64,000 nucleotides of DNA. It comes from an uncultured Acidobacteriota bacterium. Its GTDB lineage: Bacteria; Acidobacteriota; Vicinamibacteria; Vicinamibacterales; SCN-69-37. Below, one piece after another: positions 3,351 through 58,176 of this stretch. Below the pieces are notes generated by a model. It saw only the letters and a list, made by a program, of their open reading frames with translations. It ran no database searches and was not told the DNA's origin. The stretch covers positions 1,076,729-1,140,728 of the forward strand of contig CAWCUZ010000001.1 of NCBI GenBank assembly GCA_963798795.1, in the 5' to 3' direction. Each line of letters begins with the position of its first letter. Position 1 is the stretch's first letter. Made by a program: the position numbers and the translations under genes.

Positions 3351-3354
<4 letters not shown>

Positions 3355-5206
3355 TCGACCCTGAATCCGCCCGGCGTCCGGCTGCGCGGCACCTCCGGTA
3401 CGGGCACCTCCGGCGTGAAGTCCTCGCCGGGATTGATGAAGCGGTTGCGCTCGAAGTTGTACTGCTTCTCGTAGAGCTGGCGATACCGGCCGTCCTGGGC
3501 GAGCAGCTCCTCGTGCGTCCCCCGCTCCACGATCTCTCCGCCTTCGACGACGAGAATCTGATCCGCGCTGCGAATCGTCGACAGCCGGTGCGCGATGACG
3601 AAGGTCGTCCTCCCGCGCCGCAGCGACCGCAGGCCGTCCTGAATCATCATCTCGCTCTCGCTGTCGAGGCTCGACGTCGCCTCGTCGAGCAGGAGGATGC
3701 GCGGATTCGCCAGCATCGGCGCGCGCAATCGCCACGCGCTGCCGCTGGCCGCCCGAGAGCCGGACGCCGCGCTCGCCGACCGTCGTGTCGTACCCCTGCT
3801 CGAACCGGGTGATGAACTCGTCCGCGTGCGCGATCCGGCTCACCCGCTCGATGTCGTCGGGCGCGGCCCCCGGCCGCCCGTAGGCGATGTTCTCCGCGAT
3901 CGTCCCGTCGAACAGAAAATTGTCCTGCAGGACCACGCCCAGCTGGCGACGGTAGTCGGCCAGCCGGAGCGACGCCAGGTCGCGGCCGTCGACGCGCACC
4001 GTGCCCTGCGTCGGGCGGTTGAAGGCCATGACCAGGCTGATCAGCGTGCTCTTGCCCGATCCCGACGACCCGACGAGCGCCGTCGTCGTGCCGGCGGGCG
4101 CCCGGAAACTGACGTCCTTGAGCACCGGAACGCCCGGGCTTGTACTCGAACCAGACGTGCTCGAACTCGATGTTGCCCTCGATGTCGGCGACGGCCTGCT
4201 TGGCAAGGTCGTCGGCGTCCTCCCGGCGCCGTGCTCAGCAGTTCGTGGATGCGGTCGAGCCCGGCGAACGCCTCCGTGATCTGCGTCCCGATCGACGCAA
4301 TCTGCACGATCGGCATCGCCGTCAGCCCGGTGAAGATCACGTACTGCGCCAGCTCGCCCGAGGTCATCGTGCCGCCGGCGATCGCGCGGCCGCCCACGAT
4401 GATGATCACCACGCCGATGGCGCCGACCACGACGCTCGAGAACGACGAAAGCGCCGAGACGCCGGTCATCGATTTGGCGACATTGCGCAGCAGCTTGTGC
4501 GCGCCTTTCGTGAACACGAGGTCCTCGCGCCGCTCCGCCGTGTAGATCTTCACGACGCGCACGCCGCCGAGCGCCTGGTTGAGGCGCCCGGTGAGGTCGG
4601 CCGTGATCTTGCCGCGGTCGCGGAACAGCGGCCGCAAGGTCTTGAACGCGTAGCCCATGCCGCCGCCGAACGCCGCCAGGACGACGAGTACGGTCAGGGT
4701 GAGATGCCAGTCGATGACGAACAGCCACACGATCGCCACGCCGCCGTGACCACACTGCCGGTCAGCTGCACGAGGCCCGTGCCCACCAGGTTGCGAATGC
4801 CCTCGGCATCGTTCATCACGCGGGAGATGAGCACGCCCGTCTGGGTGCTGTCGAAGTAGCGGACCGGCAGCCGCATGACGTGCGCTTCGACCCGGCGGCG
4901 CATGTCGGTGATCGCCCGCTGGGCGGCCACGCCGAGGATCTGCGAGTTGCCGAAGGCCGTGACCGCCTGCACGACCGTGGCGCCGATCCCGGCCCAGGCG
5001 AGCTTCGGCAGGATCGACAGATCCCCGCGCACGACCACGTCGTCGACGAAGTACTTCGACAGCGCCGGCAGCACCAGACCCGACGCGCGGTTGACGAGCA
5101 TCAGGGTCAGGCCGAGCCCGAGCCGCCAGCGATGGCGCCAGACGAGCTGGCGCGCCTCCGCCCAGGCCGACGACCAGCGGACCCGGGGCTTGCGGGGTCC
5201 GTTCAT
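3351..5206 (-). pseudogene. ABC exporter, fused permease/ATPase (MsbA/ABCB type), with about four frameshifts.
   Basis: The N-terminal TMD is in ORF 4694..5251 (from MNGPRKPRVRW) and the TMD continues in ORF 4041..4739. The segment REDADDLAKQAVADIEGNIEFEHVWFEYK is in a third frame. Walker A GSSGSGKSTLISLV and [13 protein letters not shown] are inside ORF 2473..4755. The Walker B and C-terminus ([16 protein letters not shown]...AHRLSTI) are in ORF 3351..3728. Shifts fall near 4742, 4228, 4133 and 3719. Confidence 0.85.
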
Positions 5207-5328: not shown

Positions 5329-6397
5329 GTGACCTCGCCCCACCCCGCTTCCCCCGCCGAGCCGGGCGGCCCGCGCGCCCCCGCCCTCGACTGGGCGGAC
5401 CTGCCCGACCAGGCGCTGCTCGCGCGGCGGTTCTGCGACCTGCCCCTGTCGATTGCGGGAGCTGGCTGGAGGCGCGCGTCAGCGACCTCTACGCGGACCT
5501 GGCCGCGCGCGGCCTGACCTTCCAGCCCCACGTCTGGCTGTCGGAGGAGTGGTTCTCGCCCGACGGCGTGCCGGGCATTGCCATTCCGTTCTACCTGGCG
5601 CATCCGCGGCTGATGCCGCCTCGAGAAGGCGCAGATGCTGGAAGTGGAGGGCGGCACGCCCGAGTGGTGCATGCAGATCCTCCGGCACGAGGCGGGCCAT
5701 GCCTTCGACAACGCCTACGCACCTCCGGCGCCGGCGCCGGCGGCTGCAGCTGTTCGGATCGCCGCGCACGCCCTACCCGGATTTCTACCTGCCAAAGCCC
5801 TACTCGAAGAGCTTCGTCCTGCACCTCGACTCGTGGTACGCGCAGAGCCATCCGGACGAGGACTTTGCGGAAACGTTCGCCGTGTGGCTGACGCCCGACA
5901 GCGACTGGCGCGCGCGATACGAGGGCTGGCCGGCGCTGCGCAAGCTGGAGCTCATGGACGATCTGATGCGCGAGATCGCCGGCCGGCCGCCCGTCGTCAC
6001 CACGCGGCGCCGGTCGTCGAGCCGATCGCCAGGCTGAAGACCACGCTCCGTCGCCACTACGCGCGCAAGCGCGAGCACTACGGCCTGGAACACCCGAACT
6101 TCTACGACCGCGACCTGCGGCGGCTCTTCTCGGCCGCCCCCGAATACCGCAAGAACCGCAAGGCCTCGCGGTTCATCCACCGCATCCGGCGCGACGTGCG
6201 ACGGCTGGTGGCGGAGTGGACCGGCGCCTACCAGTACACGATCGACCGCGTCATCGAGGACATGGTCGGGCCGCTGCGATGAGCTGAACCTGCGCCTGAA
6301 GTACCCTGAGGACCGCACCAAGCTCGACTTCACGATGCTGCTCGTCGTGCAGACGATGAACTACCTGCACTCGGGACGGCATCGGCTCGCGTTGTGA
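5329..6397 (+). pseudogene. Putative zinc-binding metallopeptidase (HExxH, Peptidase_Mx-like), with about five frameshifts.
   Basis: A continuous conserved-looking protein can be assembled across frames: WADLPDQALLARRFCDLPLSIAG / SWLEARVSDLYADLAARGLTFQPHVWLSEEWFSPDGVPGIAIPFYLAHPRLM / RLEKAQMLEVEGGTPEWCMQILRHEAGHAFDNAY / ...YLPKPYSKSFVLHLDSWYAQSHPDEDFAETFAVWL... / VVEPIARLKTTLRRHYARKREHYG...IEDMVGPL / DELNLRLKYPEDRTKLDFTMLLVVQTMNYLHSGRHRLAL. Shifts fall near 5457, 5617, 5722, 6015 and 6279. The start codon is uncertain. Confidence 0.7.
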
Positions 6398-6410
6398 TAC
6401 GGACATGGCC

Positions 6411-6571
6411 GATTCGTGATTCGTGATTCGTGATTCGTGATTTGCGATTTGCGATTTGCGATTGCTGATTGATTGAACGATTGAGTGATTGATTGAACGA
6501 TTGGCCGGCCGATTGCCGATAGCCGATAGCCGATCCGATTGACGCTTGCCGATAGGAGATTGCCGATGATC
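6411..6571. repeat. Heptamer-phased tandem array: (GATTCGT)x4, (GATTTGC)x3, then degenerate GATT/CCGATAG-type 7-mers.
   Basis: Read directly: gattcgt x4 (6411-6438), gatttgc x3 (6439-6459), then gattgct gattgat tgaacga ttgagtg attgatt gaacgat tggccgg ccgattg ccgatag ccgatag ccgatcc gattgac gcttgcc gatagga gattgcc gatgatc. The 7-nt register is kept for about 23 units up to the ATG at 6566. Confidence 0.9.
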
Positions 6572-7912
6572 TGCCTGCTCCTCCTGACCTTGTGGCCGCA
6601 GGCGCCGCAGTGGATTGACGCGTACCGGGCGCCGGCCGCGCGACTGCTGCAGGCGGCGCAGGCCGACGACCACGCGTGGCGGCGGCTCGCCGAGCTCACT
6701 GATACCTACGGCAACCGCCTGTCCGGCTCGCGCACCCTCGAGCAGGCGATCGACTGGGCCGTCGCCACCATGAAGGCTGACGGACTCGAGAACGTGCACA
6801 AGGAGCCGGTCATGGTGCCGCACTGGGTGCGCGGGCGCGAGAGCCTGACGCTGCTCTCGCCCGTCGAACAGCCGCTCGTGATGATCGGCCTCGGCAATTC
6901 GGTGGGCACGCCGGCCGGTGGCGTCGAAGGCGACGTCGTCGTCGTCGGCAGCTTCGACGACCTGCAGACGCGCGCGGCGGACGTGAAGGGCCGGATCGTG
7001 CTCTTCAACGTGCCGTTCACGAACTACGGCGAGACGGTGGTCTATCGCACGATCGGGCCGTCACGCGTGGCGCAGCTCGGAGCGATCGCCATGCTGCTGC
7101 GGTCGGTTGGGCCGCCGGGACTGCGCACACCGCACACCGGCGTCACCCACTACGCCGACGGCGTGCCGCAGATTCCCGCGGCGGCCATTCCCACCGAGGA
7201 CGCCGATCGGTTCCAGCGCTTGCAGGACCGCGGCGCACCCATCCGCGTCCGCCTGATGATGGAGGGCCGCTTCGAGCCCGATTCGCAGTCCTATAACGTC
7301 GTCGGCGAGCTGCGCGGCCGCGAGCTGCCCGACCAGGTCGTGCTCGTCGGCGGACACATCGACTCGTGGGACGTCGGCGCCGGCGCCACCGACGACGGTG
7401 GGGGGTGCATTGCCACCTGGGAGGCGGTCCGGTTGATGAAGGCGCTCAATCTGCGGCCCCGGCGAACGGTGCGCGTCGTGCTCTTCACCAACGAGGAGAA
7501 CGGCGCGCGCGGCGGCGCGGGCTACCGCGACGCACATCGCGCCGAGCTCGACAACCATCTCGTGCTGCTCGAGTCGGACGGCGGCGTGTTCAAGCCGACC
7601 GGCTTCGGGTTCACCGGTCCGGACGAGTCGAGGGCGACCGTCAGGACGATCGCGGGCCTGCTGGCGCCGATCGGCGCCACGGCCGTCCAGTCCGCCGGCG
7701 GCGGCACCGACATCGAGCCCGCCGCGACCGAGGGCCACGTCCCGATGCTCGAGCACCTGGACGAGGGCGAGTACTTCCTCATCCACCACACGCCCGCCGA
7801 CACCATCGCGCGGATCGACCCGCAGCAACTCGCGCAGAACGTCGGCGCGATCGCGGTGATGGCGTACACGACCGCCGACCTGCCGTTCCCGTTCCGGCCG
7901 GGCACGCGCTAG
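6566..7912 (+). CDS. M28-family aminopeptidase with a PA domain, secreted.
   Basis: ORF 6539..7912. It has a PA-domain stretch (GDVVVVGSFDDLQTRAADVKGRIVLFN) and M28 metal-ligand context (VVLVGGHIDSWDVGAGATDDGGG, VVLFTNEENGARGG). ATG 6566 (MICLLLLTLW) is preferred over TTG 6539. The frame is intact. Confidence 0.85.
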   Translation: MICLLLLTLWPQAPQWIDAYRAPAARLLQAAQADDHAWRRLAELTDTYGNRLSGSRTLEQAIDWAVATMKADGLENVHKEPVMVPHWVRGRESLTLLSPVEQPLVMIGLGNSVGTPAGGVEGDVVVVGSFDDLQTRAADVKGRIVLFNVPFTNYGETVVYRTIGPSRVAQLGAIAMLLRSVGPPGLRTPHTGVTHYADGVPQIPAAAIPTEDADRFQRLQDRGAPIRVRLMMEGRFEPDSQSYNVVGELRGRELPDQVVLVGGHIDSWDVGAGATDDGGGCIATWEAVRLMKALNLRPRRTVRVVLFTNEENGARGGAGYRDAHRAELDNHLVLLESDGGVFKPTGFGFTGPDESRATVRTIAGLLAPIGATAVQSAGGGTDIEPAATEGHVPMLEHLDEGEYFLIHHTPADTIARIDPQQLAQNVGAIAVMAYTTADLPFPFRPGTR

Positions 7913-7938
7913 ACGTCCGCCCGCCAATGGAGGACGGT

Positions 7939-8001
7939 CGCCGGGGCTGAAGACCCGGCGCTCCAGGGAACGGATGGAGCCCCGGGGCTGCAGCCCCGGG
8001 G
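7939..8001. terminator. Two GC-rich hairpins between convergent genes, probably a bidirectional terminator.
   Basis: A 7-bp stem cgccggg/cccggcg with a loop containing ctgaa lies at 7939-7960. A perfect 22-nt palindrome ccccggggctgcagccccgggg lies at 7980-8001. Both sit between the M28 stop (7912) and the ChaN stop (8007). Confidence 0.55.
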
Positions 8002-8006
8002 ACGCG

Positions 8007-8930
8007 TCAGTCTTCCTTCAGCGTGTAGACGAGAAAATCGGCGCGCGCGCGCTCCCTCTCGTCCGGCGCGAGCGCGTCGAGGTTGTCCACCGGCAGCACG
8101 GAAATGACGACGACGCGCCGGCCCGGGAGGCGGCGCATGGCCCGTGCGGCCGTGCCCTCGTGGAAATCGGTATGGAACGCGCCGTTGAAATGCACGACGA
8201 GCGGATACTTGCCGCCGGCCGACGCGGCCTCATAGGCCTGCGCCACCGATTCGCCCATCGTCTCGTCCTTGAGACACTGGGCGAGATAGAAGCGCTCGAG
8301 CGTCTGGCGCGCGGCGGTTGCCGCGTGCTCGTCTCCCCCTTCGGCGCCGGGATGCCCGCTCATCGCCTCGCCGAACCGCTTGAAGTAGTCGTCGTCGGTC
8401 GGACACTGCAGGTCGGCGGCGAACCATCTTCGTTCGAGTTCCGGCAGGTTCTTCAGCGCACCCAGGCCCGATTTGGACACGTCAGACGCGACCTGCCGCG
8501 GCACGTTCGTGGCGATCACGGGCCAGTCGTGCGCAATGGCCAGATCGACGAGCGGCTTGTAGTCGGTCGCATAGCGCGGCCAGGGCCGCGAATCCGCCAG
8601 GAATGCGGCCTCATCCTCATGCCCCATGGCGAAATGGTCGAGCGACTCCTGCACGTCGCGCTCGAACATCTCGAGCCCGACCGTGATGTCGGCGCGCCGG
8701 CGCGCGAGTCCTTCGAGCACCGCCAGCTCCAGCACGTGTGTGTTGGGATCGTCGTGCTGTTCGCCGACGAAGACCACGTCGGCCGTCACCAGCCGCGCCA
8801 GCATCGTCTCGAAGTCCGCGAACTGCCCGCGGGAGGTGTCGAATACGCGCTGCGGCACGTAGCGCGCCTGCGCGTGCATCACGACCCCGGCCGACACCGC
8901 CATCGCCGCCACCACGAGAAGACGTCTCAT
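8007..8930 (-). CDS. ChaN-family (haem-binding / Tiki-like) lipoprotein.
   Basis: This is the C-terminal 307 aa of ORF 8007..9122, starting at MRRLLVVAAMAVSAGVVMHA. ChaN-like motifs are present: VVFVGEQHDDPNTHVLELAVLEGL, VGLEMFERDVQ, YKPLVDLA, and HFNGAFHTDFHEGT. Confidence 0.7.
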   Translation of the reverse strand: MRRLLVVAAMAVSAGVVMHAQARYVPQRVFDTSRGQFADFETMLARLVTADVVFVGEQHDDPNTHVLELAVLEGLARRRADITVGLEMFERDVQESLDHFAMGHEDEAAFLADSRPWPRYATDYKPLVDLAIAHDWPVIATNVPRQVASDVSKSGLGALKNLPELERRWFAADLQCPTDDDYFKRFGEAMSGHPGAEGGDEHAATAARQTLERFYLAQCLKDETMGESVAQAYEAASAGGKYPLVVHFNGAFHTDFHEGTAARAMRRLPGRRVVVISVLPVDNLDALAPDERERARADFLVYTLKED

Positions 8931-18960: not shown

Positions 18961-20586
18961 ATGACACGACTGCCTGCTTTCGTCGGTTTCGCTCTTCTCG
19001 TTCCCGTGGCCGTCGCCGCGCAGCCGGCGCCGCGGCCCGCGCCGCCGGCGCCGCGGCCGACCCAGACGCCGATGGTCGTGCCGGCGCCCGCGCCCCGAGT
19101 CCTGGCGCCGGAGCTCCCGCCGCTGCCCGAGGTCGCGCTCGCGCCCCGGCCCGATCTGGATCTGATGCCGCTGGCTCCCCTGCCCATGCTGGCCCCCGTT
19201 CCGCCCCAGCGGGTAGTGATCGATCCCGACGCGGTCGACGCCATTCGCCAGGCCGCTGAAGCGGCGCGTGACGCCGCGCGCGATGCGCGGCGCGTCGATC
19301 TGGATGCGATGCGCCAGGCCATGGACGAAGCGCGCGTCCAGCTGCACGACTTCCGATTCGACATGCCCGACATCCACGTGCCCCTGCCGGACGCGCACGT
19401 GTGGAGCGACTTCGACCTGCAGGCGTCTCCCTGGGTCACGGCCGACCAGGGCGCCAGCAGCGACGCGAGCCTCTACAGCAACGGCCTCGGCTACATCCAG
19501 CGCCACAACTACGACCAGGCCATCGTCTACTTCGACCGCGCGCTCGCGCGGAAAGGCACGCATGGCGAGGGGGCCCTGTACTGGAAGGCGTTCGCGCAGT
19601 ACAAGCTCGGCAAGACCACCGAGGCGCTGGCCGCGATCGCGGACCTGCGCAAGAGCTATCCGCAGAGCTCGTACCTGAACGACGCCAAAGTGCTCGAGGC
19701 CGACGTCCGGAAACTCGACGGCCAGCCGGTCAACGTGGCCGGCATGGACGACGAGGAGCTGAAGATCCTCGCCATTCACGGCATCCTGAACGCGGATCCG
19801 GATCGGGCGCTGCCCCTGATCGAGGGCGTGCTCAACGCCACGAACTCGTTGTCGGTCAAGAAGGAGGCGCTCTACGTGCTCGCCGGCAGCGACGACGCGC
19901 GCGCGCACCAGATCCTGCTGAAGTACGCCAAGGGCGCGGGGAATCCGGATCTGCAGAGCCTCGCGATCCGGTACCTGGCGAGCACGGGCAAGCAGCAGAC
20001 GACCGCCGCGGAGCTGCGCGAGATCTACGAATCGACCCAGGACCCCGCCATCCGCTCGGCGATCATCGACGCCTACGCGCGGTCCGGCAACAAGAACGCC
20101 CTGTTCACGATCATCAGCTCCAGCGGCAGCACGCCGGTCGCGCTGCGGCAGCGCGCGGTGAACGGCGTCGGCGACCTGGCGACCCCCCAGGAAATCTGGA
20201 CGCTCTACCAGAAGGAAGAGAACCGCGATCTGCGGATGCAGATGGTGAGCGCGTTCAGCTCGATGGGCGCGATCGACCAGCTGACCGAGGTCGCGAAAAC
20301 GGAGAAGGACCCGGCGGTGAAGCAGCGCGCCATCCGATCGCTCGGCAACGCCAAGGCCGACAAGACCGGTTCGGTCCTCACGACAATCTATGCCGCCGAT
20401 TCCGACAAGGACACGCGCAAGACGATCATCTCGGCGCTCGCGAACCAGGGCAACGCCGAGGCCCTCGTCGCCCTCGCCCGCAAGGAGACGAGCCTGGATC
20501 TGAAGACCGAGATCGTCCGCCGGCTGTCGGACATGGCGCCGAAGTCGAAGGTGGCGGCGGACTATTTGATGGAAGTCATCAAGTAA
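18961..20586 (+). CDS. Secreted TPR plus HEAT-repeat protein.
   Basis: ORF 18946..20586, using ATG 18961 (MTRLPAFVGFALLVPVAVAAQ). A Pro-rich linker is followed by a TPR-like part (YDQAIVYFDRALARKG...ALYWKAFAQYKLGKTTEALAAI) and then repeated HEAT-like units (DPAIRSAIIDAYARSGN, DPAVKQRAIRSLGN, DKDTRKTIISALANQGN). Confidence 0.65.
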   Translation: MTRLPAFVGFALLVPVAVAAQPAPRPAPPAPRPTQTPMVVPAPAPRVLAPELPPLPEVALAPRPDLDLMPLAPLPMLAPVPPQRVVIDPDAVDAIRQAAEAARDAARDARRVDLDAMRQAMDEARVQLHDFRFDMPDIHVPLPDAHVWSDFDLQASPWVTADQGASSDASLYSNGLGYIQRHNYDQAIVYFDRALARKGTHGEGALYWKAFAQYKLGKTTEALAAIADLRKSYPQSSYLNDAKVLEADVRKLDGQPVNVAGMDDEELKILAIHGILNADPDRALPLIEGVLNATNSLSVKKEALYVLAGSDDARAHQILLKYAKGAGNPDLQSLAIRYLASTGKQQTTAAELREIYESTQDPAIRSAIIDAYARSGNKNALFTIISSSGSTPVALRQRAVNGVGDLATPQEIWTLYQKEENRDLRMQMVSAFSSMGAIDQLTEVAKTEKDPAVKQRAIRSLGNAKADKTGSVLTTIYAADSDKDTRKTIISALANQGNAEALVALARKETSLDLKTEIVRRLSDMAPKSKVAADYLMEVIK

Positions 20587-20619
20587 GGCAGAAGGCAAAA
20601 GGCAGAAGGCAGAAGGCAA
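20585..20619. repeat. Heptamer tandem array (AAGGCAG/AAGGCAA) x5.
   Basis: aaggcag aaggcaa aaggcag aaggcag aaggcaa starts inside the TAA stop of the upstream HEAT gene and ends 20 nt before the next ATG. Confidence 0.9.
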
Positions 20620-24800: not shown

Positions 24801-25103
24801 GCGGGCGACCGGCTGAAGACGAACCTCAGCGCGGTCGAGGAGACCATCTACCAGGTCCGCAACGAGAGCGGTCAGGACCCGCTGAACTTCCCGATCAAGC
24901 TGAACAACCGGCTGGCCACTCTGCTGTCGGTCGTCAGCGACGGCGACGGCAAACCCATCGGAAACGCGCGGCCGATCTTCAACGACCTGACCGCGGAGCT
25001 GAAGGTGCAGACCGACAAACTGCAGCAGGTACTGACCGCCGACCTGACGGCGTTCAACACCGAAGCGCGGAGGCTGGGGCTGGAGCCGATCAGCGACAAG
25101 TGA
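21801..25103 (+). CDS. Secreted BNR/Asp-box, sortilin (VPS10)-like beta-propeller protein with Gly/Arg-rich inserts.
   Basis: ORF 21762..25103, using ATG 21801 (MSRPRRLSVPMAVGCAVLCTAWG). Repeated Asp-box motifs are present: KTTDRGDTW, RSTDAGKTW, KTTDGGRTW, KSTDGGDTW, RSDDAGATW, RSTDAGKTM, RTTSGGQTW, VTRDGGRTW, RTHDFGRTW and YSYDDGGTW. The frame is intact over 3.3 kb. Confidence 0.85.
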   Translation: MSRPRRLSVPMAVGCAVLCTAWGIQAGAARADRQTAAPPGLDPALLATFQWRSLGPDRGGRSLAVSGVKGQPDVGYFGATGGGLWKTTDRGDTWAPVTDGQVHSGSVGAVAVSESNPDVVYIGMGESCIRGNIQPGDGVYRSTDAGKTWTHVGFSDSDAIAKVRIHPTNPDIVFVASFGKYGGPSPERGVFKTTDGGRTWNKVLFRDDKTGGVDIAIDHNNPAVMYAALWEAFRKEYTMSSGGPGSGLFKSTDGGDTWREITRNQGLPSGIDGKIGVAVSGADSSRVYAIVENANGGLFRSDDAGATWTLANNERSIRQRAFYYTHITADPHNKDLLYVLNVGTFRSTDAGKTMVRFAGGDSHDLWIDPDDSEHVMHASDGGGAITYDASAPNRNWTSRDYPTGQFYHVIPTAHVPYQICGAQQDSSTVCIPSTPSGGGGRGGRGGRGGSAPTSYSPGGAEPGYIAPDPKDPDVFFSGSNNGGFMDYVNRRTGERREVHPYPRMFSGEPSSALVERVQWTYPIVFSPVDPNVLFTATQHVWRTTSGGQTWDRISDDLTRHDPSTMGDSGGPITHDMNGPEVYATVFALGPSKVDVNVLWAGSDDGLVNVTRDGGRTWTNVTPPGMPDFGRVSIIDASTFDAGTAYVAVKRPLLNDKAPYLFRTHDFGRTWTKIVNGLGPLDYVHTVREDPTRQGLLYAGTQHGVYYSYDDGGTWRSLSLNLPDTQVSDLWVVDSDIAIATHGRGFYILDHIAPLRQYGAQPAAASDAVLFKPDAAIRSAGNATIEYWLKQPVGTLTLDVVDPKGTVVHSFSSNAAAGGGGGRGGRGGGGAGAGRGGGRGQAPAPAAPSASVGSPGAGCGPGGGGFGGFGGRGGRGGGAAGPTPAPATVGLNCVTWNLRYPDAVGFPGMILWGGGLSGPAAAPGTYQVRLTANGRTQTQPLVIKRHPWHAATDADLQEQFDLAIQVRDKVTEANQAVIQIRRIQDAVGDRLGKSSDARLKSAGDRLKTNLSAVEETIYQVRNESGQDPLNFPIKLNNRLATLLSVVSDGDGKPIGNARPIFNDLTAELKVQTDKLQQVLTADLTAFNTEARRLGLEPISDK

Positions 25104-25224
25104 TTGGGAGATTTGGCGATTTGGCGATTTGGAGATCTGGTTGCAGCGTTCCAAACCGGCAATCTCCAAACCTCCAAACCTCCAAACCTCCAAATCTCCA
25201 AATCTCCAAATCTCAATCCCAATC
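25102..25224. repeat. Opposed arrays of an 8-nt unit (GATTTGGN vs NCCAAATC) forming a long imperfect hairpin.
   Basis: The left arm is gattggga gatttggc gatttggc gatttgga gatctggt (25102-25141), followed by the spacer tgcagcgt. The right arm is tccaaacc ggcaatc tccaaacc x3 tccaaatc x3 tcaatccc aatc (25150-25224). The outermost gattggga pairs with tcccaatc at 25217-25224. The array lies between convergent genes. Confidence 0.9.
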
Positions 25225-25242
25225 GTCGAATCCCGCCTCGCA

Positions 25243-32015: not shown

Positions 32016-32072
32016 GAATTCAAGGATTCAAGGAATCAAGGATTCGAGGATTTGGGAGTTCAAGATTCAGAG
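32016..32072. repeat. Octamer tandem array (GATTCAAG-type) x7.
   Basis: gaattcaag gattcaag gaatcaag gattcgag gatttggg agttcaag attcagag. The array overlaps the lpxB stop codon (32060-32062). Confidence 0.85.
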
Positions 32073-50715: not shown

Positions 50716-50842
50716 GGTCCCAAGGTCCGAGGGTTCGCGGAACGAGCCGACGCGTGCCTCATTGTTTGAAAGAAGCTGGCCAGCGTCAGTTCGTTCGTCG
50801 GCCCCTGGGACCTTGGGACTCTGGGACCTTGGGACCTCTGAG
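50714..50842. repeat. Opposed octamer arrays (AAGGTCCC-type vs CCTTGGGA-type) around a 65-nt AT-richer spacer.
   Basis: The left arm is aaggtccc aaggtccg agggttcg (50714-50737), starting inside the TAA stop of the S41 gene. The right arm is cctggga ccttggga ctctggga ccttggga cctctgag (50804-50842). The units are reverse complements of each other. Confidence 0.85.
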
Positions 50843-50891: not shown

Positions 50892-50968
50892 AGGCGCGTA
50901 GCTCAGCTGGTTAGAGCGCCTGCTTGACATGCAGGAGGTCGGCGGTTCGAGTCCGCCCGTGCCTACCA
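50892..50968 (+). tRNA. tRNA-Val (anticodon GAC) with CCA encoded.
   Basis: A cloverleaf can be read by hand. The acceptor stem is aggcgcg/cgtgcct (one G-U pair). The D-arm is gctc-agctggtta-gagc. The anticodon arm is cctgc-ttGACat-gcagg. The variable loop is aggtc. The T-arm is ggcgg-ttcgagt-ccgcc. The discriminator is A, followed by CCA. Confidence 0.9.
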
Positions 50969-50970
50969 AC

Positions 50971-51048
50971 GAACGCTGAACCTGGAACCCGGAACCGAAC
51001 CTGGAACTCTGAACCGAACCGGGAACCCTGAACCGGGAACCCGCAACC
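50971..51048. repeat. Heptamer-phased array with a GAACC core (about 11 copies).
   Basis: gaacg ct gaacc tg gaacc cg gaacc gaacc tg gaact ct gaacc gaacc gg gaacc ct gaacc gg gaacc cg caacc. The array fills the whole gap between tRNA-Val and the thrS GTG at 51053. Confidence 0.85.
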
Positions 51049-51052
51049 TGCC

Positions 51053-52993: not shown

Positions 52994-53566
52994 ATCGCTT
53001 ACGACCGCGGACCCCGGCGCGACGACCGCGTCCGGATCAACGAACGGATTCGGGTGCGCGAAATCCGCGTCATCGACGACGGCGGCGAGCAGCTCGGCAT
53101 CATGCCGCCGCCGCAGGCGCTTCAGTTGGCGCGCAGCAAGGGACTCGACCTGGTCGAGATCTCGCCCACGGCCATGCCGCCGGTCTGCCGGATCATGGAC
53201 TTCGGGAAGTACCAGTACGACCAGCAGAAGCGCGCGAGGGCCGCGCGCAAGCACCAGCGGACGATCGAGGTCAAGGAGATCAAGTTCCGCCCGAAGGTGG
53301 ACGAGCACGACTATCAGTTCAAGAAGAAGCACATCGAGCGCTTCCTCGCGGAGGGGGACAAGGTCAAAGCGACGATCTTCTTCCGCGGACGCGAGAACGC
53401 GCACCCGGAAATCGGCCGGCGGATTCTCGACCGGCTGACGATGGAACTGAGCGACGTGGCCGTCATCGAGTCGGAACCGCAGAAGGAAGGCAACCAGCTC
53501 CATACGATCCTCGCCCCGCGCCCCGGTGCGCGGCGCGCCGTCGCGGCGGAGCGAAGCGGGGTCTGA
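52994..53566 (+). CDS. infC: Translation initiation factor IF-3, probably with a non-canonical ATC start.
   Basis: Track ORF 53054..53566 begins at an internal GTG. The same frame is open back to the thrS TAG and encodes IAYDRGPRRDDRVRINERIRVREIRVIDDGGEQLGI, which matches the conserved IF-3 N-terminus (RIN.EIR..EVRL). The only start-like codon is ATC at 52994, 5 nt after AGGAGG (52983-52988). Confidence 0.8.
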   Translation: MAYDRGPRRDDRVRINERIRVREIRVIDDGGEQLGIMPPPQALQLARSKGLDLVEISPTAMPPVCRIMDFGKYQYDQQKRARAARKHQRTIEVKEIKFRPKVDEHDYQFKKKHIERFLAEGDKVKATIFFRGRENAHPEIGRRILDRLTMELSDVAVIESEPQKEGNQLHTILAPRPGARRAVAAERSGV

Positions 53567-53607
53567 CCCGGTGACGAAGCGGGGCTGACCCTCTGACGGA
53601 AACACCT

Positions 53608-57984: not shown

Positions 57985-58176
57985 GGACTTCGAGTTCCCT
58001 GCTTTGCACGTGATGGTTCGGAGTGTCGCTTGAGCCAACGTCACGTCCAAAGTGAGCCGCGACGTTGCGTGGTGTGCATGCCTCCGCAGTGAGGAAGCCT
58101 GAAGCGCGACTTCTCGAGTGGCTCCACCTGCTTTGCAGGTTCATCCGACCTCCCCACACGGCAAAGCGGGGTCCTT
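57985..58176 (+). ncRNA. ssrS: 6S RNA (SsrS). The ends are approximate.
   Basis: It fills the non-coding gap after zapA, which is the classical zapA-ssrS synteny. The closing helix pairs CCCUGCUUUGC (57997-58007) with GCAAAGCGGGG (58161-58171). The core GGUGUGCAUGC-CCUCcgcaguGAGG-AAGCCUGAAGCGCGAC (58070-58110) closely parallels the E. coli 6S segment GGUGAGCAUGC-hairpin-AAGCCUUAAAACUGCGAC as I recall it. A possible -10 box TAAGAT lies at 57973-57978. Confidence 0.75.

Follow-up and report, generated by a model that had tools for sequence, protein, structure and literature searches.

A layered heptameric tract upstream of an M28 peptidase gene in an uncultured Acidobacteriota bacterium is probably an intergenic simple-sequence repeat of a type common in its lineage

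We have analyzed a tract of 7-nucleotide (nt) repeats that lies directly upstream of an M28 peptidase gene in a 64-kb stretch of contig CAWCUZ010000001.1, from an uncultured Acidobacteriota bacterium of the order Vicinamibacterales (this whole stretch, of 64,000 nt, is called the window here). We propose, with a probability of roughly 0.65, that the tract is an intergenic heptameric simple-sequence repeat (SSR) of the 5-11-nt class known from Xanthomonas, Nostoc and Burkholderia, generated by slippage, that acts as a fast-evolving filler of the spacer and is one of the 7-8-nt arrays found throughout this lineage. We found no evidence that it switches the M28 gene.

The tract lies between a Peptidase_Mx-like gene and the M28 gene, in a spacer of 168 nt bounded by the TGA stop of the former (6395-6397) and the ATG of the latter (6566); the GC content of this spacer is about 52%, as compared to 70% across the window. 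Reading from 5' to 3', it is composed as follows:

6398-6410, plus strand: non-repeat linker of 13 nt, TACGGACATGGCC, after the upstream stop codon
6411-6442, plus strand: perfect (GATTCGT) run of 4.6 copies (Tandem Repeats Finder, TRF, 100% match, score 64; perfect-run check)
6439-6463, plus strand: perfect (GATTTGC) run of 3.6 copies, in the (GATTCGT) register (perfect-run check and TRF)
6460-6473, plus strand: GATTGCT and GATTGAT, two variant units that keep phase 0
6466-6503, plus strand: direct duplication of 20 nt, TGATTGATTGAACGATTGAG, 1.9 copies (TRF, period 20, 100% match)
6500-6513: palindrome GGCCGGCC at the junction of both arrays, the sole inverted repeat in 6200-6800
6509-6569, plus strand: degenerate second array of about nine CCGATNG-like units (lag-7 z 5.5; reading of the sequence)
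6554-6558, plus strand: Shine-Dalgarno (SD)-like AGGAG, 7 nt 5' of the ATG, straddling the junction of two degenerate units

The 7-nt self-match of the region 6411-6571 was 0.604, compared to 0.26 ± 0.04 in 2000 dinucleotide-preserving shuffles, none of which reached that value (z 8.2). By segment, z was 8.0 for 6411-6473 and 5.5 for 6509-6571, and the 35 nt between them (6474-6508) had no 7-nt periodicity (lag-7 match 0.21, z -0.5). The units of the second array are, in order, CCGATTG, CCGATAG, CCGATAG, CCGAT, CCGATTG, ACGCTTG, CCGATAG, GAGATTG and CCGATGA, and TRF describes it as a period-7 repeat of 8.9 copies at 6508-6567 with 70% match and 7% indels.

These data confirm only in part a preliminary description of this DNA, according to which a single heptamer register was maintained from the first GATTCGT into the start codon. 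The GATTCGT and GATTTGC runs are real and stay in phase with their variants up to 6473, and the ATG does fall inside the last recognizable unit, CCGATGA (6563-6569). However, the register breaks at the 20-nt duplication: GAT is found at phase 0 to 6467 and then at phases 4, 5, 6, 3 and 4, the CCGATNG units at 6509-6536 carry it at phase 2, and phase 0 is regained only through one unit of 5 nt (CCGAT, 6530-6534), a return that has a chance of 1 in 7. The 18-nt block TGATTGATTGAACGATTG reported as duplicated at a 21-nt (3x7) distance is indeed present twice, starting at 6466 and 6486, but the offset is 20 nt according to TRF; the lag-21 match of 0.42 is the third harmonic of lag 7, which is the dominant lag. 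Iterons and other helically phased direct repeats (10-11 or 21-22 bp) were ruled out on the same two grounds, the dominant lag of 7 and the 20-nt offset.

The (GATTCGT) block at 6411-6442 is the youngest block of the tract. We infer that replication slippage was the generating process: repeated slipped-strand duplication of a CGATTG/CCGAT-like seed would have built the tract, leaving young perfect GATTCGT and GATTTGC blocks at the 5' side, a secondary duplication of 20 nt, and at the 3' side a CCGATNG array that is older and decayed. The SD and the ATG of the M28 gene lie in this decayed end. The array fills the Peptidase_Mx-M28 spacer and has stretched it to its present length.

Because the adjoining genes contain frame switches, any single-base statement on the register of the tract, ours included, is provisional. 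There are five such switches in the ABC-transporter gene (3354-5206), at least four in the Peptidase_Mx-like gene (5335-6394) and one in the aconitase gene (at about 11345), and no frame is broken in the M28, haem-binding, NosD-like and DUF525 genes. Those to the left of the array look like long-read consensus indel errors, as DNA alignment with relatives revealed window-specific indels of 1-2 nt, several of them insertions within short G or C runs. The abundance of these indels in the adjacent 3 kb and the source of the sequence, a single 2.7-Mb contig, could indicate that the tract itself, or its exact length and register, arose from consensus errors in a poorly polished region. We consider this extremely improbable, since short-read assemblies made independently (MEGAHIT k141, SPAdes NODE and JGI contigs) have the same kind of array at this spacer and perfect four-copy heptamers are not produced by random indel errors; the existence of the array is safe, and only details of ±1 nt, and possibly the number of units, are at risk. 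No second contig of the species was found in scans of genome and metagenome contigs, where identity did not exceed 76%; for this species, a search of 5.8 billion proteins matched only the source M28 protein itself, with one member on the 2.7-Mb contig, and an exact-protein look-up for sequences of the same species gave no match.

About 22 distinct relatives retain the Peptidase_Mx-M28 gene pair (L-numbers designate loci fetched from relatives), and the spacer bears an array in about 11 of them, with at least eight different units, among them:

AAGTCG-type unit: L001, L003, L066
GGGTAAT(T) unit: L005, L022
AAGCCAG unit: L043
CAACTGA-like unit: L086
AGGCTGG unit: L048
GAGTCCC/GGTCCGC units: L034
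AAGGCTT unit, as an inverted pair: L044

Most array-free relatives have a spacer of about 13-65 nt, and in L007, L035, L088 and L042 only about 13-20 nt separate the two genes; SD sequences are present in the short spacers of L088 (AAGGAG) and L035 (GGAGG), and the GGAGG of relatives is at the same position as the AGGAG at 6554-6558. Longer array-free spacers, of about 85-145 nt and with GC-rich hairpins, were found in L002, L059 and L049. As for the nearest relatives (75-76% identity), L086 has the CAACTGA-like array, L087 is array-free and L088 has a spacer of 18 nt, so the GATT array is younger than the splits from these three.

Pairs of closer relatives differ by whole units. L051 and L058, which are 97% identical, have identical flanks over the stretch compared and a 14-nt difference that corresponds to two GGCTGGG units, and one unit variant (G to T) is present in four units of this array. 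At the orthologous spacer, an insertion of 62 nt that bears an array distinguishes L042 and L048 (about 89% identical) from each other, and L001 and L003 have common array ends and differ in two internal 8-nt units. These whole-unit differences support slippage-type growth together with a concerted spread of variants. Such arrays change by whole units and turn over faster than species diverge, and at this one orthologous spacer the units are replaced completely from species to species.

A second feature varies at this spacer. A conserved TATACT or TATAAT-like box is present 7-9 nt 5' of the M28 ATG, without an SD, in L004, L006, L008, L037, L042, L044, L048 and L087 (at about locus position 5975-6000 or the equivalent); in L004, L037, L042 and L087 it lies in a short, array-free spacer. 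In the window and in L001, L003, L005 and L022 there is an SD rather than this box. This arrangement suggests that the M28 mRNA is leaderless, or has a very short leader, in the relatives that carry the box.

The tract is not an isolated case. A TRF census over all the fetched DNA, whose Vicinamibacterales-like set includes one near-duplicate pair (L004/L041), gave these counts:

Vicinamibacterales-like, 340 kb: 37 period-7 arrays and 22 period-8 arrays
Pyrinomonadaceae-like, 153 kb: 11 period-7 arrays and 1 period-8 array
Other taxa, including high-GC genomes, 266 kb: 0 period-7 arrays and 0 period-8 arrays

In the first set, no more than four arrays were found at each of periods 4, 5, 6, 10 and 11. 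Perfect arrays of at least three copies numbered six at period 7 and five at period 8, with 0.0 expected from shuffles, and there were none at periods 5 and 9-12. The arrays are mostly non-coding (49 of the 59 with period 7 or 8), their ends typically lie 0-20 nt from a stop or start codon, their mean GC content is 0.57, and their density is about one per 6-7 kb of the sequence sampled. The spacers of Vicinamibacterales-like Acidobacteriota, and less so those of Pyrinomonadaceae-like ones, commonly hold 7-8-nt arrays.

The window itself contains six array-bearing spacers, five of them with 7-8-nt arrays besides that of the M28 gene:

20585-20618, plus strand: (AAGGCAG) of 4.9 copies, beginning inside the TAA stop of the upstream gene (TRF)
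25102-25214: inverted pair of 8-mers between convergent genes, (GATTTGGN) of 4.9 copies and (CTCCAAAY) of 6.4 copies (TRF)
32018-32052: (ATTCAAGG) of 4.4 copies between two minus-strand genes
50806-50840, plus strand: (TGGGACCT) of 4 copies, 5' of tRNA-Val (50892-50968)
50978-51050, plus strand: (GAACCYG) of 11 copies, between tRNA-Val and the next gene

The inverted pair forms a long hairpin (25096-25240; RNA fold -49 kcal/mol, z -5.6), and tRNA-Val has two different arrays, one on each side. The arrays at 20585 and 25102 both start within upstream stop codons (AAG-TAA-GGCAG... and AAG-TGA-TTGGG...), and their units may have been seeded from the gene's own 3' end. The units of the window are unrelated to each other: any two spacers are at least 2, and mostly 3-4, apart in minimal cyclic edit distance, which equals the background between genomes. 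For this reason we rejected, for the window, a common motif (GATT occurs in three of the arrays) and a genome-wide repeat family.

The tract has the features that define heptameric long SSRs as a class: head-to-tail copies of a 5-11-nt unit beyond chance (4.6 and 3.6 copies, z 8.2), an intergenic location among many arrays in which period 7 dominates (49 of 59 non-coding; period 7 in 37 of them and period 8 in 22), and variation in length by whole units, seen at the sister arrays of relatives. The preliminary description had remarked that a 7-nt period is neither helical nor that of codons, but this is no anomaly. According to the passages of PMC4679880 and PMC4692102 that cite Mrazek (2007), many bacteria have heptamers as their most abundant class of long SSRs, which have been proposed to arise by polymerase slippage; in some genomes, intergenic DNA is enriched in repeats of 6-11 nt (PMC4060949).

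The closest parallels are the GGGAATC repeats of Xanthomonas and the GGGGAYT repeats of Nostoc/Anabaena, 89-93% of which are intergenic and located near open reading frame (ORF) ends, and whose length varies among close relatives; a role in phase variation was judged unlikely for them (PMC4692102). Like these, the arrays described here are tandem, 7 nt in unit, intergenic, near ORF ends and present many times per genome, they vary in length and sequence among relatives, they occasionally form inverted pairs, they have no link to phase-variation genes, and slippage is their proposed origin. Unlike them, they have no genome-wide consensus unit, as each spacer of the window has its own; units of 8 nt almost equal those of 7 nt in number, the units are not of the G-quadruplex type, and the density reaches about one array per 6-7 kb of sampled sequence. 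Moreover, Vicinamibacterales are not among the host lineages named in the literature that we found, and our search, whose coverage was incomplete and therefore is no proof of absence, found no description of such arrays in Acidobacteriota.

Similarity to other systems is more partial. The short tandemly repeated repetitive (STRR) sequences of the cyanobacteria Calothrix and Nostoc, which PMC4692102 mentions, are also tandem heptamers in the non-coding DNA of free-living bacteria. STRR sequences fall into a few defined families (three heptamers) that are reused genome-wide. The units described here, in contrast, are heterogeneous and reused only in some genomes (L034 and L022). The unrelated units of the window rule out a family of the STRR or TAACTGA type. 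The TAACTGA repeats of marine Beggiatoaceae are heptamer direct repeats located just 5' of start codons, as in the present case, and the genes that carry them often have no canonical ribosome-binding site; a translational role has only been proposed (PMC4679880). These consist of one fixed heptamer in 2-6 copies that is common to distant phyla, whereas the present tract has an SD, and the arrays described here have units that differ from locus to locus and are longer and built in layers.

The preliminary description had further proposed that the whole promoter and 5' untranslated region of the M28 gene are built from repeats, so that gain or loss of units would change the distance between promoter and start codon, and the tract could then be a phase-variable contingency locus that switches or tunes M28 expression. 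Several observations are in line with this idea. Perfect repeats of at least four units are prone to slippage, whole-unit indels do occur between close relatives at comparable arrays of the lineage (L051/L058, L001/L003 and L042/L048), and in L044 and L048 a TATACT box resembling a -10 element lies just 3' of the array, so that arrays can sit in promoter-upstream DNA. Phase-variable SSRs of promoters or 5' untranslated regions, such as the poly-G of uspA1 and the AGAT repeat of uspA2 in Moraxella, or those of Neisseria and Haemophilus, are likewise slippage-prone repeats located 5' of a coding sequence, where the number of units could in principle alter expression. However, the latter have units of 1-5 nt, lie between or beside promoter elements that are well defined, in genes for surface structures or interaction with the host, and are polymorphic within strains, and none of these features is evident at the tract.

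At the locus itself, a scan of 5500-8200 found neither a sigma-70-like promoter, that is, no -35/-10 hexamer pair in or around the array, nor an intrinsic terminator. The distance between SD and ATG is fixed and lies outside the perfect repeats, which in turn lie outside the ORF, and it does not depend on the number of units; a contingency locus acting through promoter elements or through a repeat within the ORF was rejected on these grounds. The same type of array is present in many spacers whatever the function of the gene, even beside a tRNA, and neither the lifestyle of the host (free-living, in soil) nor the gene product (a secreted peptidase of housekeeping type) matches the usual contingency-gene profile. 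In some relatives the two genes are separated by only about 13-20 nt with an SD, which fits co-transcription of the Peptidase_Mx and M28 genes in an operon, and the array would then be an intercistronic spacer and not a promoter. The report on the Xanthomonas heptamers was equally negative in this respect (PMC4692102). We therefore regard a switch of this kind as very unlikely. The earlier interpretation retains part of its support, in that the whole spacer from the TGA to the ATG is repeat-derived and arrays of this lineage do change by whole units, but neither a repeat-built promoter nor an effect on promoter spacing was borne out. Because the SD-ATG geometry is untouched by the number of units, any effect of the array on M28 expression would be at most modest and not switch-like, through an AT-richer and longer intercistronic or 5' leader.

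It is possible, if unlikely, that such a leader is what the array is for: transcribed as an intercistronic or 5' leader, it would, as an AT-richer and weakly structured tract, either assist the loading of ribosomes, in the manner of a standby site or an S1-type enhancer, or offer an RNA-binding protein a place to dock, as has been proposed for the TAACTGA repeats. Its GC content of 52% in a 70% GC genome is consistent with this role, as are the mean GC of all arrays and the position of arrays directly 5' of start codons, ending at the SD or ATG, and ideas involving S1, Csp and CsrA have been discussed for the TAACTGA repeats (PMC4679880). On the other hand, units vary among the spacers of one genome and among species at one spacer, which makes a single sequence-specific binder unlikely, and about half of the relatives have no array at the Peptidase_Mx-M28 spacer. 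The arrays are as structured as composition-matched shuffles (mean fold z -0.06) and the RNA of this spacer folds slightly better than its shuffles (z -1.8), so that selection for an unstructured leader was rejected as a general property. An informal count revealed no consistent purine or strand bias of the units relative to the downstream gene, as two orientation groups were inconsistent with each other.

Other candidate functions were discarded as well. The tract has no inverted partner in 6200-6800 besides the GGCCGGCC palindrome and its fold z is only -1.8, so it is not a hairpin-type extragenic repeat (like the repetitive extragenic palindromic, REP, sequences, or a terminator), a feature that other arrays of the class do have. 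At the gathering score, Rfam identified only 6S RNA and tRNA in the window and no family at the tract, and at E ≤ 1 the region 6300-6700 gave only a chance miRNA match (E 0.12). A small ORF in the array, from ATG 6406, ends after 4 codons, and the antisense ORFs 6251-6823 and 6361-6699 failed a gene screen based on GC at third codon positions and were taken as chance ORFs.

Several observations weigh against our interpretation of the tract as slippage-generated filler. The arrays of L043 and L086 reach the ATG directly and take the place of any SD, and it may thus be as leaders that direct arrays act. Both the sharpness of the peak at 7-8 nt and the density of arrays, which is very high, are specific to the lineage, and the arrays may not be neutral. 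Near-identical units, identical or with one mismatch, are reused across spacers of the same genome, which hints at dispersal or at a sequence preference:

L034, at 2331, 5804, 7299 and 7427 (three spacers): ACTC[TCG]GG family
L022, at 5850 and 11832 (two spacers): GGGTAATT

In addition, an inverted partner is present for 15 of the 17 arrays in convergent spacers versus 11 of 30 elsewhere (Fisher p 0.0008), and some convergent spacers are made almost wholly of inverted pairs of 7-8-nt arrays:

L002, 383-556 (hairpin of about 80 bp, -131 kcal/mol, z -12.7)
L001, 7347-7431
L047, 4534-4672
L056, 954-1120
L044, 1216-1329

The inverted-pair subclass at convergent gene ends, at a minimum, looks functional. 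These clues leave room for a function of the class of arrays and do not bear specifically on the array of the M28 spacer, which is direct and has no partner. A broader proposal would be that Vicinamibacterales, and other Acidobacteriota to a lesser degree, build much of their intergenic DNA from 7-8-nt arrays by a lineage-specific process, and then put the arrays to use, inverted pairs as long hairpin terminators or insulators between convergent genes and direct ones as tunable leaders or spacers 5' of start codons, with a preferred unit spreading to several spacers in some genomes. We consider it rather improbable; if it were true, the GATTCGT/GATTTGC array would not be filler but would take part in the control of M28 expression, tunable through its length.

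The genes on both sides of the tract are the following:

5335-6397, plus strand: Peptidase_Mx-like putative zinc metallopeptidase with an HEAGH motif (tblastn with the L001 and L088 orthologues)
6566-7912, plus strand: M28 peptidase with a PA domain, 448 amino acids (Pfam PF04389, 2.5e-28, and PF02225)

The Peptidase_Mx-like gene has 77-88% amino acid identity to its orthologues, and those in L086-L088 gave a weak match to PF15887. One protein on record (P0001), from the 2.7-Mb contig, is 100% identical to the M28 protein over 448 amino acids; homologues of the M28 protein carry the JGI name 'carboxypeptidase Q', and its closest relatives (72-76% identical) are in metagenome-assembled genomes (MAGs) labelled Vicinamibacterales or Acidobacteriota. 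The nearest relatives are syntenic, with the gene order Peptidase_Mx, M28, haem-binding protein, NosD/PA14 protein and aconitase. An orthologue of the TonB receptor was not found in the left flank using the L001 protein as query, and the neighbour there is the ABC transporter.

The start of the M28 gene is ambiguous on sequence grounds. The public gene call begins at ATG 6566, which has the SD and leaves just about 12 residues ahead of the conserved mature N-terminus. The frame is open back to 6530, and if translation began at TTG 6539, the protein would gain MTLADRRLP and its N-terminus would be MTLADRRLPMICLLLLTLWPQA, which resembles a signal peptide with an RR n-region and has the length usual in relatives according to the N-terminal comparison.

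Other repeats and RNAs of the window were noted along the way. GC-rich hairpins with a CTGAAG-type loop are present near the M28 gene, GGGGCTGAAGACCC in the window (7935-8002) and GGCGGGCTGAAGCCCGCC in the spacers of L002 and L059; they recur 3' or 5' of this gene in different species and may constitute a small REP-like family. At about 7981-8002 there is a perfect palindrome, CCCCGGGGCTGCAGCCCCGGGG. The region 53552-53598 holds a tandem duplication of 22 nt, CGAAGCGGGGTCTGACCCGCTGA in 2.1 copies, with a small GGGTC...GACCC hairpin in each copy, and the 6S RNA (RF00013, 74.5 bits) is located at 57993-58176.

Finally, the M28 spacer taken alone is an ordinary heptamer microsatellite and matters little; it is the lineage-wide 7-8-nt pattern that is of greater use. 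Those who annotate these MAGs should be aware that spacer lengths and start-codon calls are unstable in them. If the pattern is confirmed on complete genomes, an abundant soil lineage would be among the most heptamer- and octamer-rich bacterial groups, and it would be well suited to the question of why bacteria favour slippage units of 7-8 nt, which has been open since the 2007 survey.

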